DNA of 64,000 nucleotides from contig OY759361.1 of assembly GCA_963662355.1 (NCBI GenBank), positions 226,942-290,941 on the forward strand. The letters are read 5' to 3'. Both the position numbers and the translations under genes were made by a program. Under the pieces are notes generated by a model, which did not search any database, was not told the DNA's origin, and worked only from the letters and a program-made list of their open reading frames with translations. Each line of letters begins with the position of its first letter. The first letter of the stretch is position 1. This document shows, piece after piece, positions 5,029-64,000 of this stretch. This DNA comes from Gammaproteobacteria bacterium. GTDB taxonomy: Bacteria > Pseudomonadota > Gammaproteobacteria > UBA4575.

Positions 5029-6147
5029 TCAAATCTTTGCTAAGTTTTCACTGTTGTCACTTTTCCCTAAACAAACTTGCATGCAAATTCTTGCTACATC
5101 ATCGGCCGCCTGAGGTTTGGCAAATTTTCGGATTGCTAATGCAATGCCCTTGATTTTCGAACGATGTGCATTCACATCACGCAACAACCTGACCAGAGCT
5201 GATGCATTGAACTCACGTTCCTGAATCAGAAAAGCCGCACCAGCCTTGACCAGTGCAGCCGCATTGGCTGTTTGGTGGTCATCCACTGCATAGGGATACG
5301 GGACAAAAATTGCACCAACTCCTGCCATGGCAAGTTCAGCGACAGTGATGGCGCCTGCACGACATATGACAAGATCTGCCCATGCATAGGCATCGTGCAT
5401 CGCATCGATAAATGCATCCACGCGAGCTTCAACACCATGGTCATCATATTGCTGCTGCGTAAACTCAAGCTTACTCTCACCCGTCTGATGCCAGACTTCG
5501 GGGCGTTCTTTAGGGGTAAGCTGTGCCAGTGCAGAAGGGATCATCTGGTTAAAAACGTGAGCCCCCAGACTACCACCCACAACAAGCACTCGAAGTGGTC
5601 TATTGTCAGGCTCGGCAACGGGATATTCCCGCCTGCCTAGTGAGATTTCCATACGTACCGGGTTGCCCACTACTTCGACATTCCTGTGCACAATTGTGCT
5701 CGGGAATCCGGTCAGAACACATTTTGCAAATGGGGCGAGTATACGATTTGTCAGGCCTGAAATAGCATTCTGCTCATGAATGATCAAGGGCCGCCGAAAC
5801 AAGGCAGCTACCAAACCACCTGATCCAGAAACAAATCCACCCATACCTAGAACAGCACAGGGACGATGCTTAAGCATCAGCCATATGGTTTGCAGCCCGG
5901 CAAATCCCAGCTTTATGGGTGCTAACAGGTACGTCAGCATATCCTTACCGCGAAGGCCGCCAATAATGATTTTTTCAAATTGGTACCCTGTACTGGCCAA
6001 CACTTTTGATTCAATCCCTTTTTTCGTACCCACCCAGACTATCGGTATTCCCTGTTGTTCAATTTTTTTTGCAACGGCCAGTGCAGGGAATACATGCCCC
6101 CCCGTACCACCGGCAAAAATCATGATTGGAGGGCATACGGGTTTCAT
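5029..6147 (-). CDS. murG: UDP-GlcNAc:undecaprenyl-PP-MurNAc-pentapeptide GlcNAc transferase
   Basis: GT28 family. MIFAGGTGGHVFPALAVA N-terminal motif. Start placed at MKPV (6147), which gives an ATGA overlap with the ftsW stop. The track ORF extends in frame to 6231. Confidence 0.85.
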   Translation of the reverse strand: MKPVCPPIMIFAGGTGGHVFPALAVAKKIEQQGIPIVWVGTKKGIESKVLASTGYQFEKIIIGGLRGKDMLTYLLAPIKLGFAGLQTIWLMLKHRPCAVLGMGGFVSGSGGLVAALFRRPLIIHEQNAISGLTNRILAPFAKCVLTGFPSTIVHRNVEVVGNPVRMEISLGRREYPVAEPDNRPLRVLVVGGSLGAHVFNQMIPSALAQLTPKERPEVWHQTGESKLEFTQQQYDDHGVEARVDAFIDAMHDAYAWADLVICRAGAITVAELAMAGVGAIFVPYPYAVDDHQTANAAALVKAGAAFLIQEREFNASALVRLLRDVNAHRSKIKGIALAIRKFAKPQAADDVARICMQVCLGKSDNSENLAKI

Positions 6148-12653: not shown

Positions 12654-14361
12654 GATCTTTAGAAAGATGAGCAATGTCTGTGCGTACGGGCACATTGTCA
12701 GGAGCAATATTCAGTATGCGCAGGGCTCCACCCATGATGCTTGAAAAAATGGGAGCCGCAACCTGGCCGCCAAAATAGACTCCTCTGCTCGGTTCATTCA
12801 CCACAACCACGAGCACCAGCTTCGGGTCGCTGGCCGGAGCCATGCCTGCAAAAAGGGATATGTATTTGTCCTTAGCATATTCACCTCCTGCAAGCTTATG
12901 AACAGTACCGGTTTTACCCGCAACATGATATCCGGGTATCGCCGCACGAAAACCCGTGCCATACTCCGAGACGACTGCATTCAGGATCGAACGGACCTGC
13001 TTAACTGTTTGTGATGAAACCACTCTGGGAGAAGTTTTCCAGCGTTCACCTGCATCTGCCTTGCGCAACATGGAAATTGACAGCTGCCTGCCATTGGATG
13101 CCAAAACTGTGTAGGCGCGCGCCAGTTGCAGAGTCGTCGTCGACATACCGTAACCAAACGCCAACGTTGCATGTTCTGTGTGATGCCAGTCGCGATGATA
13201 TTTCAGATGGCCATGAACTTCGCCCGGGAACCCGGATTCTGTTGATTGTCCGACACCAATAGCGTTATAGAGGTTCCATAAATCAGGCCGCGGGATCGTC
13301 AATGCAATTTTTACAGCACCGACGTTGCTGGATTTAAGCAATACATCATTTACCGATAATGGTCCAAAATCCCTGACATCTCGGATCTTATACCTGCCTA
13401 TTTTGTAAGTGCCGGGCGTAGTATCAATGACTGTGTCTAGAAAATAGCGCTTGGATTCCAGAGCCAGTGCAATTACGAAAGGCTTCATCGTCGATCCAGG
13501 TTCGAATACATCTGTGACTGCACGGTTACGGTATGTGCTTTGTTTGTACCCTTTTCGATTATTAGGGTTAAACGAGGGCACATTGACCATGGCTATCACT
13601 TCACCTGTTTTGGCATCAATCATGACAGCAGAGGCTGATTGGGCGCCGTGCTGTATATAACCCGCCTTCAATTCACGATACGCCAGATACTGCACTCTCC
13701 GATCAATACTCAATTCTACGTTTCGACCAGGGCGAGGAATTCTTACAGCTTCAACGTCTTCAACAATTCGATTCAATTGATCTTTTATCACCCTCTTGGC
13801 ACCGGGTTTGCTGACCAGCCAATCTTCATATGCAAGCTCGATTCCCTCCAGGCCTTTATCATCGATATTCGTAAAACCAAGGACATGTGAGCTGACTTCA
13901 GCCGTTGGATAGTAACGTCGATACTCACGTTGCAAATAAATTCCGGACAAGTCTGCCTGGTTTAATTCCTCAGCATACTGAGGGCCTACATGGCGCTTTA
14001 CGTACAAAAATTGCCGTTTCTTTTTCTGTTCGAGTTTGCTTGCAAGTTCGCCCGCTTTCATCTCCAGAATTTTTTCAGCACGCACGACAGATTCACGGTC
14101 ATCCAATGCTTCTGCCGGGTTCGCCCATACTGAATAAACTGGCGTGCTCACTGCGAGTAATTGACCGTTCCGGTCCAAGATCATCCCACGGTGCGTGGGT
14201 ATCTCAACTACTCGCAAGTGGCGCGCCTTACCTTCCTCCTCCAGGAATTCATGATTGAATAACTGCAAATCCACTGCCCGCACAAACAAGATGCCGAGTC
14301 CCAAAGCAAAAACAGATAAAACAAAAATTCGTCTCAGCCTGTAATGCGGTATCTGTTTCAT
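12643..14361 (-). CDS. ftsI: Peptidoglycan D,D-transpeptidase FtsI (PBP3)
   Basis: 572 aa. N-terminal TM, then transpeptidase motifs STMKP (SxxK), SSN (KSSNVG) and KTGT. Confidence 0.9.
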   Translation of the reverse strand: MKQIPHYRLRRIFVLSVFALGLGILFVRAVDLQLFNHEFLEEEGKARHLRVVEIPTHRGMILDRNGQLLAVSTPVYSVWANPAEALDDRESVVRAEKILEMKAGELASKLEQKKKRQFLYVKRHVGPQYAEELNQADLSGIYLQREYRRYYPTAEVSSHVLGFTNIDDKGLEGIELAYEDWLVSKPGAKRVIKDQLNRIVEDVEAVRIPRPGRNVELSIDRRVQYLAYRELKAGYIQHGAQSASAVMIDAKTGEVIAMVNVPSFNPNNRKGYKQSTYRNRAVTDVFEPGSTMKPFVIALALESKRYFLDTVIDTTPGTYKIGRYKIRDVRDFGPLSVNDVLLKSSNVGAVKIALTIPRPDLWNLYNAIGVGQSTESGFPGEVHGHLKYHRDWHHTEHATLAFGYGMSTTTLQLARAYTVLASNGRQLSISMLRKADAGERWKTSPRVVSSQTVKQVRSILNAVVSEYGTGFRAAIPGYHVAGKTGTVHKLAGGEYAKDKYISLFAGMAPASDPKLVLVVVVNEPSRGVYFGGQVAAPIFSSIMGGALRILNIAPDNVPVRTDIAHLSKDHAG

Positions 14362-14365
14362 GTTG

Positions 14366-14638
14366 CTACTGTGATTTCAAAAGCACTGATTTATTTTTGT
14401 GAACCAGGCTCATACCAAGCTTTTCACGTGCAAGCTTCTCGACCCTGCCATATGTCAGCCAGGTGCTTTGCTCTAGCTGCAAGCGGCCCCACTCAACTTG
14501 CAGTTCATCAAACCTGTTCTGCATGTTCTGCAACTCGATGAATTCTTTCCGTATCGAATGCTTTGAGTACACAATACCTACTCCTGTAAACACGTTTGCT
14601 GCCAGCAAAATTGCTGCAAGCACGAACCTGCTTAACAT
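14366..14638 (-). CDS. ftsL: Cell division protein FtsL
   Basis: 90 aa bitopic protein. TM followed by a coiled coil (FIELQNMQNRFDELQVEWGRLQLEQS). Sits between rsmH and ftsI. Confidence 0.8.
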   Translation of the reverse strand: MLSRFVLAAILLAANVFTGVGIVYSKHSIRKEFIELQNMQNRFDELQVEWGRLQLEQSTWLTYGRVEKLAREKLGMSLVHKNKSVLLKSQ

Positions 14639-16327: not shown

Positions 16328-16722
16328 GAGTAGGAGTCTGCCTGTAAGCCGGGTTCTGTCATGGGCAGCCATTCATCTGGGATTCATGTCACCATGAACC
16401 TCAAGCAACCTACCCGGGGGCCATACGGGCCATATGCCGGATATTTCCGCGCCCCTCTATTCGGTCTTGCTCCAGGTGGGGTTTACCTAGCCACAACTAT
16501 TACTAGTTGTGCGGTGCGCTCTTACCACACCGTTTCACCCTTACCTAGCTCATCCGTCTGAATGATATTCAAGCGAAGCAGCCAGGCGGTCTACTCTCTG
16601 TTGCACTTTCCATGGACTCACATCCTCCAGGTATTACCTGGCACCCTGCCCGTGGAGCCCGGACTTTCCTCCCTCCTGCCTTTCCATTGAGGACGCAGGA
16701 AGGCGACTGCCTGGCAGACTCC
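16328..16722 (-). ncRNA. rnpB: RNase P RNA, bacterial type A (M1 RNA)
   Basis: The reverse complement reads ...GGAGUCUGCCAGGCAGUCGCCUUCCUGCGUCCUCAAUGGAAAGGCAGGAGGGAGGAAAGUCCGGGCUCCACGGGCAGGGUGCCAGGUAA...AGGUAAGGGUGAAACGGUGUGGUAAGAGCGCACC...ACAGAACCCGGCUUACAGGCAGACUCC. This is near-colinear with E. coli M1 RNA, including the P4 GGAAAGUCCGGGCUCC and AGGGCAGGGUGCCAGGUAA motifs. The 5' and 3' ends pair as helix P1 (GAGUCUGCC/GGCAGACUC). Ends approximate to about 5 nt. Confidence 0.92.
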
Positions 16723-60237: not shown

Positions 60238-60433
60238 AAAGGAAATTTTTGCGACCAATTTGTTGGGGAGCTGGCTCCAAATTATTTCGACAAGCCAAAA
60301 CCCCTGAATAATCGAGAGGTTACGAAACCGGAGGCGCTTTTATTAAAATCCAAGGGCTAAGTTGATAAAATTTTTTGATAATCCGGAATGCCACAAACCA
60401 AAATGACACGGCAACTTCACTGTACAATACGGC

Positions 60434-60788
60434 CATGAACAGCCCTGAAAACATCCCACTGCAGGCAGACCTCGCCGACCACGGTGGATGCGCCAATTCG
60501 GAACCGTTTGCCTTGCGCGTTTTAGGCGACAGCATGGAACCGGAATTCAAGGATGGAAGCATTATCATCATCGACTCTGCAGCGGCCGTGAAGAGCGGCT
60601 GTTATGTGTTGGCCATGGTCAATGAAGAATATATTTTTCGCCAACTGATCATAGAGGGTGACCACTATGAACTCAGAGCCCTGAACAAAGGGTATGAACC
60701 AATAGAGGTCACAGGCATCGATGCTATTCGTGGTGTGATCGTACAGCGCTCAGGTACACGCCGCAAAGACCACAAGCATTATGACTGA
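60434..60788 (+). CDS. Stand-alone S24 (LexA/UmuD-like) serine peptidase domain protein
   Basis: LRVLGDSMEPEFKDGSIIIIDSAAAVKSGCYVLAMVNEEYIFRQLIIEGDHYELRALNKGYEPI aligns with UmuD ([23 protein letters not shown]...GDIVIAAVDGEFTVKKL), including the Ser nucleophile in GDSM and a downstream Lys. There is no N-terminal HTH and no adjacent umuC/dinB. Start could also be the in-frame ATG at 60375. Confidence 0.6.
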
Positions 60789-60839: not shown

Positions 60840-61307
60840 TCACTGCTCCGGTTCTTGCTGCTCAGGTGCAGGTCTTGGACTCAAATAGGCTTCTGCGCGA
60901 TCCAGTTTGACCTTATTATTGTTTTGATCAACCAGCGGTTGTTCATAGTCATGCCAGCCTTTCAAACCTGTTTTCAGAGAAATGACGTTCTCAAATCCCA
61001 TTAACTGCATAGTGTGGGCTGCCAGTACACTGCGGTTTCCAGAGCGGCAGGCGACAATGATTTCCTTCTTCCGGGCCTCTACAAGGTCGGGCACAGTTTC
61101 GCTATAACCGTAATCACACGCTGCCTCAAGAACACCCCGAGGGACATTAACGGAACCTGCTATATGCATCGCTGCGAATTCTTCAGGCTCACGTATGTCC
61201 AGAACAAGGGGACTGTGATTGCCGGAAAGTTTCTGCTCCAGGTCCCAAGGCATGATTTCATTGATTAATTTTTCATGCTCGAATACAAGCTGTTTGAATG
61301 TTTTCAC
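60840..61307 (-). CDS. Single-domain rhodanese (thiosulfate sulfurtransferase-like)
   Basis: 155 aa. Rhodanese fold with the active-site loop CRSGNRS (catalytic Cys). Acidic/Pro-rich C-terminal tail. Lies 53 nt downstream of the response regulator. Confidence 0.8.
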   Translation of the reverse strand: MKTFKQLVFEHEKLINEIMPWDLEQKLSGNHSPLVLDIREPEEFAAMHIAGSVNVPRGVLEAACDYGYSETVPDLVEARKKEIIVACRSGNRSVLAAHTMQLMGFENVISLKTGLKGWHDYEQPLVDQNNNKVKLDRAEAYLSPRPAPEQQEPEQ

Positions 61308-62048: not shown

Positions 62049-63419
62049 TCACACCATTTCGTGTTGGATATCACCTTGCAGTTCACCCGGTAAATAATCA
62101 AACTCAAAACGGACCTGCACACCTTCACCAGGTTCTCCCTCTACGGTAAGTGTACCACCAATCCGGTTTGCACGATCCTGCATGATGCTGATTCCGACAT
62201 GTTCGCCCGCAGGATCCTGATTCTGCAGGTCTGTCATTCCAATACCATCGTCTTCAACCAAGACCGTGTAGTGGCCATCCTCGTTACCTCGCATGAGCAC
62301 CCGGACTGTACCAGCTTCACTGTGTTTGCGTGCATTTGTAAGGGCCTCCTGAATGACACGCAGTACCTGCAATTCTGTTTGAGGGGGCAGTGTGGTATCC
62401 GGCCACTCTTTTTGCAAGTATACCTGTATGTCATCACTGTCCTGCTTGAATCGTTCTATAACCTGTTCTACAGACACTGTAAGACCGTACTCACCTATAG
62501 GCATGCGAAAATGCGCAATAAGTGTCCGCAACTCTGTATGCGCTTCATCAATGGTAGATTCGATGCGTTCCAGTTCCTGCCAGGTTGCCGCTTCATCTTC
62601 TTGATGGATAGTTTCATCCAGTACCCGCACCTGATATTTGATGCTTGCCAACGTTTGCGCAAGTGAATCATGCAACTCATTGGCTATATTGGTCCTCTCA
62701 CGCATGATGGACAAGGCATTGGCCTCCTCGTCCAGACGCGCCTTTTCTACTGCGATTCCAAGGTGTCGACCCATACTGGTGAACAATTCTTCATACTCAC
62801 CATCTCTTTTGAGTTGATCTCCATCAATGTACAGGTTATACACACCCAGAACCTTACCGCGATACTGCAACGGTATAATCAAAATCGAAAGTTTATCACG
62901 TTCAGCATTTCCCTCACTGACCTGGTCAGGACAAGGAATAACTTTGATGGGGATCACCCGCTCTTCATCAGATCCACGTGTATTTTCGGGTAAATAAGGG
63001 AATTCATCCCTGGCAGCCATTGCAATACCGGTCTCTGCAATCAAAGAGAATGTACTATTTTTTGTCTCAAGGTAAACGGCAGCTCGATGTGCATTGACCA
63101 GTTCCGTCATGGTATGAAGGAAACGCGTGAGCAGCTCATGCACGTTACGAGACATATTGATGCTGGTAACCACGTCGTACAATGTTTTTTGTGACTTGTT
63201 TTTGCGCGCAATGTGTTCCGTGTGCCGCTGTAACTGTATCTCGGCATCTCTGGACAGGGATTCCAGCATTTCGGCAACGAAGTTAATATCCTGACTCAGT
63301 TCGGATAAATCCTGCTGCGAACAGTCAGGAATGCGCGCAGAAAGCTCACCTGCACGAATTTTTTGTGTCCACGTGCGCAAAGCAGTCAGAAACTCACTTG
63401 GCTTGGCATCCGGGAACAT
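62049..63419 (-). CDS. Soluble NarX-like sensor histidine kinase (HAMP - GAF-like central module - HisKA_3 - HATPase_c), lacking the periplasmic/TM sensor
   Basis: 456 aa with no hydrophobic TM stretch. The N-terminus (FLTALRTWTQKIRAGELSARIPDCSQQDLSELSQDINFVAEMLESL) reads as a HAMP domain. HisKA_3 H-box ELHDSLAQTL. N-box QEALTNARKHS. G-boxes DDGIGM and GISIM. Confidence 0.8.
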   Translation of the reverse strand: MFPDAKPSEFLTALRTWTQKIRAGELSARIPDCSQQDLSELSQDINFVAEMLESLSRDAEIQLQRHTEHIARKNKSQKTLYDVVTSINMSRNVHELLTRFLHTMTELVNAHRAAVYLETKNSTFSLIAETGIAMAARDEFPYLPENTRGSDEERVIPIKVIPCPDQVSEGNAERDKLSILIIPLQYRGKVLGVYNLYIDGDQLKRDGEYEELFTSMGRHLGIAVEKARLDEEANALSIMRERTNIANELHDSLAQTLASIKYQVRVLDETIHQEDEAATWQELERIESTIDEAHTELRTLIAHFRMPIGEYGLTVSVEQVIERFKQDSDDIQVYLQKEWPDTTLPPQTELQVLRVIQEALTNARKHSEAGTVRVLMRGNEDGHYTVLVEDDGIGMTDLQNQDPAGEHVGISIMQDRANRIGGTLTVEGEPGEGVQVRFEFDYLPGELQGDIQHEMV

Positions 63420-63643
63420 TCACAAGCTCCGAATGATTGAAGCATGCATTTCATGGCACCATGTTGTACACATCATAATTTACTGTTACTTTACCAGTAT
63501 TGAAATTAAATTCGTAATGAGAGCCATCTCTTAACACCATGAAACCCTGTTAAATTCCCTGAGGTTCTTGAGAGGCCAGCGGTAAAGCCACCAAGACATG
63601 GATCGGAGAATACAGGAATCGAGCAGATTGCAGGAGAACCACT

Positions 63644-63733
63644 ATGAGTGAAATGACCAAAACCATGTTGATTGTTGCCGCAATGGTGATACCGTGCATC
63701 ATTCTAGCCATAGCGATAATAATGAAGTTTTAA
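63644..63733 (+). CDS. Candidate 29-aa single-TM micro-protein
   Basis: AGGAG Shine-Dalgarno 8 nt upstream of the ATG. MSEMTKTMLIVAAMVIPCIILAIAIIMKF is one hydrophobic helix. Followed 19 nt later by a perfect 9-bp hairpin GGCGCAAAT(ctgcttgtc)ATTTGCGCC. Not in the >=60-aa ORF track. No recognisable family from sequence alone. Confidence 0.35.
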   Translation: MSEMTKTMLIVAAMVIPCIILAIAIIMKF

Positions 63734-63869: not shown

Positions 63870-64000
63870 TCATCCCTCGGTAGGCGGGGAATAATCCGGG
63901 TCATTTGGATTCAGGAACACAAAGTGAAATTGCTTGGGTTCCAATTCAGCAAAATCAATTGTCGTTCCATCCAGCAAGCCAAAACTGGACTCTGCTACAA
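63870..64000 (-). CDS. Possible 3' end of an unidentified gene entering from beyond the window
   Basis: The minus-strand frame is open from the window end to a TGA at 63870-63872 and reads ...AESSFGLLDGTTIDFAELEPKQFHFVFLNPNDPDYSPPTEG*. Only 43 codons are visible, so this could be chance. Confidence 0.25.
   Translation of the reverse strand, partial: VAESSFGLLDGTTIDFAELEPKQFHFVFLNPNDPDYSPPTEG

Follow-up and report, generated by a model that had tools for sequence, protein, structure and literature searches.

The NarQ/NarX-NarL system of Escherichia coli contains the closest characterized relatives of the histidine kinase that is the subject of this work. NarQ and NarX have a periplasmic four-helix sensor, which contains the nitrate-binding P-box motif and is flanked by a pair of transmembrane (TM) helices, and, in the cytoplasm, a HAMP domain, a signaling helix, a GAF-like module, HisKA_3 and HATPase_c, in that order. 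We analyzed a stretch of 64,000 nucleotides from a gammaproteobacterial genome (assembly GCA_963662355.1, contig OY759361.1; hereafter, the window), in which a kinase gene encodes the same cytoplasmic order from HAMP onward and lies beside the gene for a NarL-type regulator with REC and GerE domains. In contrast to NarQ and NarX, the window kinase has no P-box sensor and no TM helix, its GAF domain is larger and recognized by Pfam, and its neighbors are dsr genes and a rhodanese gene rather than narK/narG.

Parts of this architecture are already known from other systems, among them soluble HAMP-first proteins and soluble GAF-HisKA_3 kinases. The DosS/DosT (DevS)-DosR system of Mycobacterium tuberculosis likewise comprises soluble GAF-sensing HisKA_3 kinases with a NarL-family regulator, but these kinases have tandem GAF domains, the first of them haem-binding, and no HAMP, whereas the window kinase has a single GAF behind a HAMP. 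A response of DosS to H2S has also been reported (cited in PMC9918477). The soluble NreBC system of Bacillus licheniformis senses sulfide and activates sqr-pdo (PMC9918477). It resembles the window system in that a cytoplasmic HisKA_3 kinase and a NarL-type regulator are found inside a sulfur-oxidation cluster with rhodanese-like proteins (PMC9918477); however, its sensor is a PAS rather than a HAMP-GAF module, its host is Gram-positive, its targets are sqr-pdo rather than dsr, and no orthology is detectable. Aer2, a soluble receptor that opens with HAMP domains and senses through a downstream PAS (PMC13446029), illustrates that HAMP can work without a membrane anchor, ahead of the actual sensor domain. 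Proteins of the Aer2 type have several or many HAMPs and mostly a chemotaxis output, whereas the window kinase has one canonical HAMP, apparently a relic of a membrane-bound ancestor. Among solved structures, the best sequence match is DesK of Bacillus subtilis, the structural prototype of HisKA_3 kinase cores (residues 232-432; E 4e-11 with the single sequence, 2e-14 with a profile). DesK differs in having five TM helices that sense membrane thickness and neither HAMP nor GAF. Foldseek matches of the whole kinase are mostly kinase cores, with DesK structures among the top matches and providing the best kinase-core matches.

We show that the window kinase belongs to an old, monophyletic clade of soluble kinases with conserved catalytic residues and a conserved HAMP domain, and that its gene forms an operon-like unit with those of its regulator and a rhodanese, linked to dsr genes. 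It is probable, in our judgment, that the protein is a functional cytoplasmic kinase of a dsr/rhodanese-linked, NarQ-like subfamily, which lost its anchor long ago and senses through its GAF domain, with a sulfur or redox input. The sensory role of the GAF, the nature of the signal and the target genes are the parts that we infer. Both the subfamily and its anchor-free clade appear to be undescribed. A. vinosum has ‘NarXL’ genes, although it is without nitrate-reduction genes (PMC3368242). Our literature searches found no dsr-linked two-component system and nothing specific on Alvin_1057/1058. To our knowledge, little is known about the regulation of reverse-Dsr in gammaproteobacterial sulfur oxidizers, and DsrC, DsrR and DsrS alone have been discussed.

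A soluble clade nested among membrane-anchored orthologs

The open reading frame (ORF) of the kinase is maximal, with an ATG start, a GGAG Shine-Dalgarno sequence 7 nt upstream, and an in-frame TGA directly 5' of the ATG (coordinates are collected in Table 1). Its peak 19-residue Kyte-Doolittle mean is only 0.84, with nothing reaching 1.6, and the protein thus has no TM helix, including the pair that flanks the NarX/NarQ sensor. The protein begins six residues ahead of HAMP and has no P-box. A previous sequence-only reading of this DNA had called it a NarX-like kinase that has HAMP, a GAF-like module, HisKA_3 and HATPase but no hydrophobic segment. The missing hydrophobic segment is confirmed by the hydropathy profile, and the domain order by Pfam, an AlphaFold model and alignment with NarQ. 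BLASTP aligns residues 11-446 of the kinase with residues 180-561 of E. coli NarQ (27% identity, E 8e-36), so that homology starts exactly at the first HAMP helix after NarQ TM2, where that reading had placed it. Against E. coli NarX, BLASTP aligns the transmitter only. Thus, downstream of TM2 the kinase reads more like NarQ than NarX, and the earlier comparison holds for the architecture but not for the closest match. The kinase scores below the NCBIfam equivalog cut-offs of both proteins (198.8 versus 553 bits for NarQ; 129.1 versus 578 bits for NarX).

The domains are supported individually. Pfam matches HAMP weakly in the window kinase, at residues 13-53 (E 0.042, under the gathering threshold). 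The assignment is real, because 14 of 23 aligned family members match Pfam HAMP at E <= 0.01 (best E 2e-8), the family profile matches the HAMP region of PDB 9trk (E 6e-5), and the model gives a helix-loop-helix. In this AlphaFold monomer model, built on 117 sequences (mean predicted local distance difference test score, pLDDT, of 77), a helix at 7-22 and a loop at 23-35 are followed by a helix at 36-89 that continues into the GAF, with a pLDDT of about 90 in this region. The connector AGELSARIP has the Gly-x-hydrophobic ... Pro pattern of HAMP domains, and W17, R22 and G24 are invariant in the 117-sequence alignment. The domain is not in its usual place just after a TM helix, a position that is typical of HAMP but not part of its definition. 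Residues 91-225 match both Pfam GAF_2 (29.2 bits; gathering 28.6) and Pfam GAF (26.4 bits; gathering 22.4), and the model has a GAF fold of helices and beta sheet at 93-206. The profile finds weak matches to the GAF structures of PtsP, DevS and DosT, and to the ATPase structures of DevS and DosT. The H-box, with residues 248-256 as a whole, N362 of the N-box and the DDGxG motif (390-394) are invariant across the 117 sequences. With its H-box, the N and G boxes of HATPase_c, and a neighboring REC-GerE regulator, the kinase belongs to the HisKA_3 class.

The anchor-free form is widespread among close relatives. Among 5.8 billion proteins searched, about 80 clusters are 65-100% identical to the window kinase. 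All are 450-491 aa long, several lie on contigs or complete chromosomes of 1.6-2.8 Mb, and their N-terminal tails are short (0-35 aa), variable and hydrophilic. Homologs at 50-57% identity are longer (510-566 aa), with two hydrophobic helices and a very short loop between them at the N terminus. We also called the kinase ORF in 80 genome loci of uncultured Gammaproteobacteria. A TM helix is absent from all 20 loci at 66% identity or above, and no full-length version of the kind that had been envisaged is thus found among these close orthologs. At 53% identity or less, almost all loci have two TM helices, 10-20 aa apart; metagenome-assembled genomes assigned to Thiohalobacter and Thiogranum have this 2-TM form. 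With E. coli NarX as the root of a neighbor-joining tree, all soluble members (21/21) form a single monophyletic clade, which lies 11 nodes deep inside the 2-TM orthologs. Another soluble HAMP-first kinase, P0227, branches apart from this clade, which indicates that the anchor has been lost more than once.

The membrane-bound orthologs at the equivalent genomic position have a TM hairpin with a loop of 10-20 aa and no P-box domain. With a bare membrane hairpin as ancestor, there was no NarX-type periplasmic sensor to lose, and to describe the window kinase as lacking that sensor is misleading. Mean pairwise identity within the soluble clade is 85% in the signaling helix, 72% and 75% in the HAMP helices AS1 and AS2, and 59% in the GAF; in comparison with the 2-TM forms, it is AS1 that has diverged most (31% identity). 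No credible relic of TM-coding sequence was found in the 480 nt upstream by tblastn with 2-TM N-termini; the best match (E about 0.001 with composition correction off) falls on a hydrophobic small ORF and is compositional noise. Together, the protein clusters, the genome loci, the tree, the conservation of HAMP and the absence of a relic indicate that the loss of the anchor is old and fixed, and that the protein is under selection.

Among 849 relatives from a HAMP+GAF search of 1.84 billion representatives, most have their HAMP at positions 65-125, indicating a hairpin anchor. A few carry it at 214-265 behind a periplasmic domain, which in P0192 is a NarX-like P-box. The HAMP-GAF module is therefore widespread, and its N-terminal inputs have changed by gain and loss. 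With hairpin-bearing and anchorless orthologs that share partners and context, the family amounts to a natural experiment on how HAMP functions. Because the anchorless clade keeps its HAMP under strong constraint, the domain is likely to have a role beyond relaying transmembrane piston or rotation signals. Being soluble and tractable, the window kinase also lends itself to studies of HAMP-to-GAF-to-DHp coupling, the unexplained central module of NarX/NarQ included.

Operon partners and the dsr neighborhood

The kinase, the NarL-type regulator and the rhodanese are encoded in the arrangement of a single operon and are predicted to be co-transcribed. The regulator starts 10 nt past the kinase stop codon, the gaps between regulator and rhodanese genes are short, and the rhodanese lies directly 3' of the regulator in 60 of the 68 loci with enough flank (tblastn mapping). 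The regulator had been read as colinear with NarL, and is indeed 45% identical to E. coli NarL over 210 residues. It narrowly misses the NCBIfam NarL equivalog (238.7 bits versus a cut-off of 250), and its recognition helix, TVKLHVKAILRK, which is almost that of NarL, occurs in 71 of 76 loci. The rhodanese lacks a signal peptide and, in 61 of 63 loci, keeps its catalytic loop in the form CRSG.RS or CGSGKRS.

A TGGTAAAGT block upstream of the kinase is possibly the operon's own promoter. Its conserved form, AATACTGGTAAAGTA, is found in L001-L005, L007 and L034, and a sister subclade has GCGTATAAT at a similar position; a consensus promoter scan did not call the block. When a regulator box was sought upstream of the kinase and of the rhodanese, nothing was found but -10-like blocks and one hairpin. 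A conserved hairpin (TAGTTCGCAGC...GCTGCGAACTA, for example) is present in the regulator-rhodanese spacer of one subclade (L014-L019) and may be an attenuator or internal terminator.

The operon is linked to dsr genes. On contig L001, whose kinase is identical to that of the window at 455 of 456 residues, dsrA,B,E,F,H,C,M,K,J,O,P,N,R lie directly upstream of the kinase. After dsrR come a spacer of ~450 bp, the kinase, the regulator, the rhodanese, a convergent S24-peptidase gene, and ribonucleotide reductase. Across the loci, whose titles include Thiotrichales, Thiogranum, Thiohalobacter, Thioalkalispiraceae, Thiohalomonadales and Acidiferrobacterales, dsrR is found no more than 5 kb upstream of the kinase in 51 of the 54 with enough flank, and is directly adjacent in 40. 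In L020, the kinase unit is detached from dsr and the rhodanese is still kept. A kinase-regulator-rhodanese unit beside dsr across several orders is a concrete, testable candidate for dsr regulation.

This context gives no support to the nitrate/nitrite framing of the sequence-only reading. With E. coli NarK and the N-terminal part of NarG as the only two tblastn probes, no match was found in the window and no homolog within 10 kb of the kinase in the 80 genome-collection loci (L002-L081).

Signal input, regulatory output and rival explanations

Orthologs with and without the hairpin keep the same partners and neighborhood, which implies a signal that is read in the cytoplasm. A sulfur-related or redox input, with sulfur-oxidation genes as the output, is suggested by the rhodanese and the neighboring dsr genes. 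Thus, the signal is probably related to sulfur or redox state, which we consider likelier than nitrate. We propose that the ancestral kinase was anchored by a two-helix membrane hairpin without a periplasmic domain, and that one gammaproteobacterial clade, which includes the window organism, lost the hairpin and kept everything from HAMP on. The single GAF would read a cytoplasmic signal, possibly via the conserved Cys163. HAMP and the signaling helix would form a dimeric coiled-coil cap or set-point module rather than a transmembrane relay, with the cap setting the balance of kinase and phosphatase activity, as N-terminal HAMPs do in soluble receptors such as Aer2 (PMC13446029). The dimeric kinase would autophosphorylate His250, and the phosphoryl group would pass to Asp58 of the regulator. 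The rhodanese, predicted to be catalytically competent from its active-site loop, and the link to dsr would connect the system to a sulfur or redox input.

A more specific proposal, which we regard as speculative and on balance unlikely, is that the kinase senses sulfane sulfur. Here, the rhodanese would persulfidate Cys163, HAMP would set the switch point, and the phosphorylated regulator would bind 7-2-7 repeats at dsrA, switching dsr on or off. If true, dsr genes would gain their first assigned two-component regulator, and a rhodanese would for the first time be a co-sensor of a histidine kinase.

The repeats in question are found in dsrA promoters, which we reached through loci fetched around DsrB and DsrK (2.15 Mb of DNA). 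They surfaced in 80 metagenome loci from the DsrB scan, which have longer, dsrL-containing operons that never extend to the kinase. The dsrA promoters of gammaproteobacterial sulfur oxidizers contain a conserved 7-2-7 inverted repeat, TATCYCW-NN-WGRGATA, which in 26 of the 59 eligible loci lies 130-260 bp ahead of dsrA. Allowing at most one mismatch, there are 35 matches in the 2.15 Mb, of which 26 lie within 300 bp upstream of dsrA; the others include sites in front of a divergent dsrC-like gene and a single site in a dsrR-kinase spacer. In L164, whose kinase is 84% identical to that of the window, positions 5045-5081 hold the repeat as TATCCCTATTGGGATA and a second palindrome, CCCCATGGAGGGG, behind it, and a -10-like hexamer, TAGACT, follows; this palindrome and hexamer often stand behind the repeat in dsrA promoters. 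NarL sites have a 7-2-7 layout as well (TACYYMT-NN-AKRRGTA). The resemblance in layout is suggestive only.

Several observations weigh against a GAF-sensing, sulfur-linked kinase that acts on dsr. The window has no copy of the repeat, and the region ahead of the kinase shows no enrichment for it in the loci scanned. Degenerate copies of it occur in dsr operons without an adjacent two-component system (L167, L168), and the dsrA-promoter repeat thus cannot be assigned to the NarL-like regulator of the window. The regulator itself is very NarL-like, as its near-equivalog score shows. The 2-TM orthologs have three conserved GAF cysteines, a CxC (97% and 83%) and Cys163 (98%), a motif that recalls the cysteine cluster in the central module of NarX (C302/C308/C313/C316). 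Two of the three are gone from the soluble clade, in which the CxC (aligned between window residues about 145 and 163) is cleanly deleted; Cys163 is kept in 90% of soluble members but is Ile in two. The conserved gene order also takes in unrelated genes (S24 peptidase and ribonucleotide reductase), one soluble subclade (L009-L019) has about 4.3 kb of unrelated genes between dsrR and the kinase, and in L020, L028 and L029 the kinase-regulator pair is located elsewhere. Some of the linkage to dsr may thus be a matter of inherited synteny, not of functional coupling. The triad of kinase, regulator and rhodanese is the firmer unit.

The main rival to a sulfur or redox signal is a cytoplasmic sensor of nitrate, nitrite or NO, with the GAF binding an intracellular nitrogen oxide and the regulator governing nitrate respiration that is coupled to the oxidation of sulfur. 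Binding of NO by GAF domains is known for those with haem or iron. The likeness of the kinase to NarQ and NarX, the closeness of the regulator to NarL in overall identity, equivalog score and recognition helix, and the NarX-like P-box ahead of the same HAMP-GAF module in the distant relative P0192 would all suit such a sensor. There is also a GAF precedent in NreA, which is a nitrate receptor (cited in PMC9918477). Nevertheless, we regard this explanation as improbable: the partners kept across loci are a rhodanese and the dsr operon, NarK/NarG were not found within 10 kb in L002-L081 or in the window, the kinase scores far under the NarQ and NarX cut-offs, and no member of the orthologous group, membrane-bound or not, has the NarX-type nitrate-binding domain.

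Two further explanations concern the missing anchor. The free HAMP might dock on a separate membrane protein, either a small peptide encoded upstream or DsrMKJOP, that replaces the TM2 input. This would account for a HAMP that is strongly conserved despite the loss of its usual input, and for the divergence of AS1 from the 2-TM relatives, as expected of a remodeled interface. The sequence-only reading had found no ORF for a split sensor domain in a 224-bp upstream region. The gap to dsrR (stop codon at 63870-63872) is in fact about 450 bp and does hold an ORF, of 53 aa with one predicted TM helix, 130 bp upstream of the kinase, although it does not encode a sensor domain. A 23-aa version (MHGITIAATTSIVFVISLIVFLL) is present in L002 and L034, with about five synonymous and four non-synonymous codon differences over 22 shared codons, signs of purifying selection among the closest relatives. 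However, the ORF is conserved only in L001, L002 and L034 and is absent from most of the soluble clade (L003-L019); it was rejected as a split sensor on these grounds. No other conserved membrane-protein gene accompanies the operon, and the existence of soluble HAMP-first receptors such as Aer2 (PMC13446029) indicates that a free N-terminal HAMP needs no membrane partner. A split sensor is thus, in our view, quite unlikely. Least credible of all is a recent truncation, pseudogene remnant or assembly artifact of a membrane-bound NarX/NarQ gene, one of the two explanations that the sequence-only reading had offered. The kinase does begin exactly where the cytoplasmic part of NarQ begins, with a stop codon directly ahead of its ATG. 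Yet the same architecture recurs in about 80 protein clusters and 20 independent genome loci that form a nested monophyletic clade, no catalytic residue varies, purifying selection acts on HAMP, which is more conserved than the GAF, and the start has a good Shine-Dalgarno sequence and no credible TM relic in the 480 nt before it. As far as sequence data reach, recent truncation is refuted. The other explanation, a cytoplasmic paralog that would sense through its central module, is the one that the data support.

Features of the locus and further observations

Table 1. Features of the kinase locus, with positions in the 64,000-nucleotide window
Feature	Position	Strand	Basis
Single-domain cytoplasmic rhodanese, loop CRSGNRS, third operon gene	60840..61307	-	Pfam Rhodanese E 9e-18
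NarL-type response regulator, 225 aa, REC (D13/D14/D58) and GerE helix-turn-helix	61361..62038	-	Pfam Response_reg, GerE
Soluble histidine kinase, 456 aa (HAMP, signaling helix, GAF, HisKA_3, HATPase_c)	62049..63419	-	ORF, Pfam, NCBIfam, AlphaFold model, NarQ alignment
HATPase_c, residues 349-441	62097..62375	-	Pfam E 5e-15
HisKA_3 dimerization/phosphotransfer domain, residues 241-307	62499..62699	-	Pfam E 4e-15
Phospho-accepting His250 in ELHDSLAQ	62670-62672	-	Codon position
GAF, residues 91-225, presumed sensor	62745..63149	-	Pfam GAF_2 and GAF
Cys163 of GAF	62931-62933	-	Codon position
Signaling-helix coiled-coil linker, residues 56-90, continuous with AS2	63150..63254	-	Single model helix 36-89
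HAMP, residues 7-55 (AS1 7-22, connector AGELSARIP, AS2 36-55)	63255..63401	-	Pfam, relatives, model, profile
TGGTAAAGT block, extended -10-like, candidate operon promoter	63488..63496	-	Conservation; about 70-80 nt upstream of kinase ATG
Small hydrophobic ORF, 53 aa, one predicted TM helix, status uncertain	63550..63711	-	In dsrR-kinase spacer
dsrR (IscA-like) 3' end, last gene of dsr operon; window stops inside	63870..64000	-	Translation, contig L001

The dsr operon of the window's clade has dsrJ directly after dsrK, and dsrL is missing from it; on the opposite strand, some 4 kb upstream of dsrA, a DsrL-like gene clusters with a DsrC-like gene, a Pfam Cas6 (PF09559) match, a TauD-like gene and a 2OG-Fe(II) oxygenase (L001 3671-5726; L164 1-1083). 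The L009-L019 insert in the dsrR-kinase spacer comprises an SRPBCC protein, several genes without a family match and a monofunctional transglycosylase (mtgA-like), and the corresponding position in L166 is taken by a MotA/ExbB- and ZorA-like gene.

The S24 peptidase-like gene, of the UmuD/LexA C-terminal type and without a helix-turn-helix domain, is located at 60375-60788 (+) in the window, convergent to the rhodanese, and is kept at that position in most loci of the whole group. In L001, an rve-integrase insertion (13364-14623) separates the S24 gene from ribonucleotide reductase, and the window is without it. Together with the single kinase difference between the two (P7S), this indicates that L001 and the window are from different, though closely related, strains.

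One locus with the gammaproteobacterial dsrR-kinase-regulator-rhodanese arrangement, L016 (CAXMUG010000113.1), is labeled ‘uncultured Mycobacterium sp.’ and is probably mis-binned. The sole Rfam match at the gathering threshold in the window is a bacterial RNase P class A RNA at 16329-16722 (-), with a score of 324 bits.

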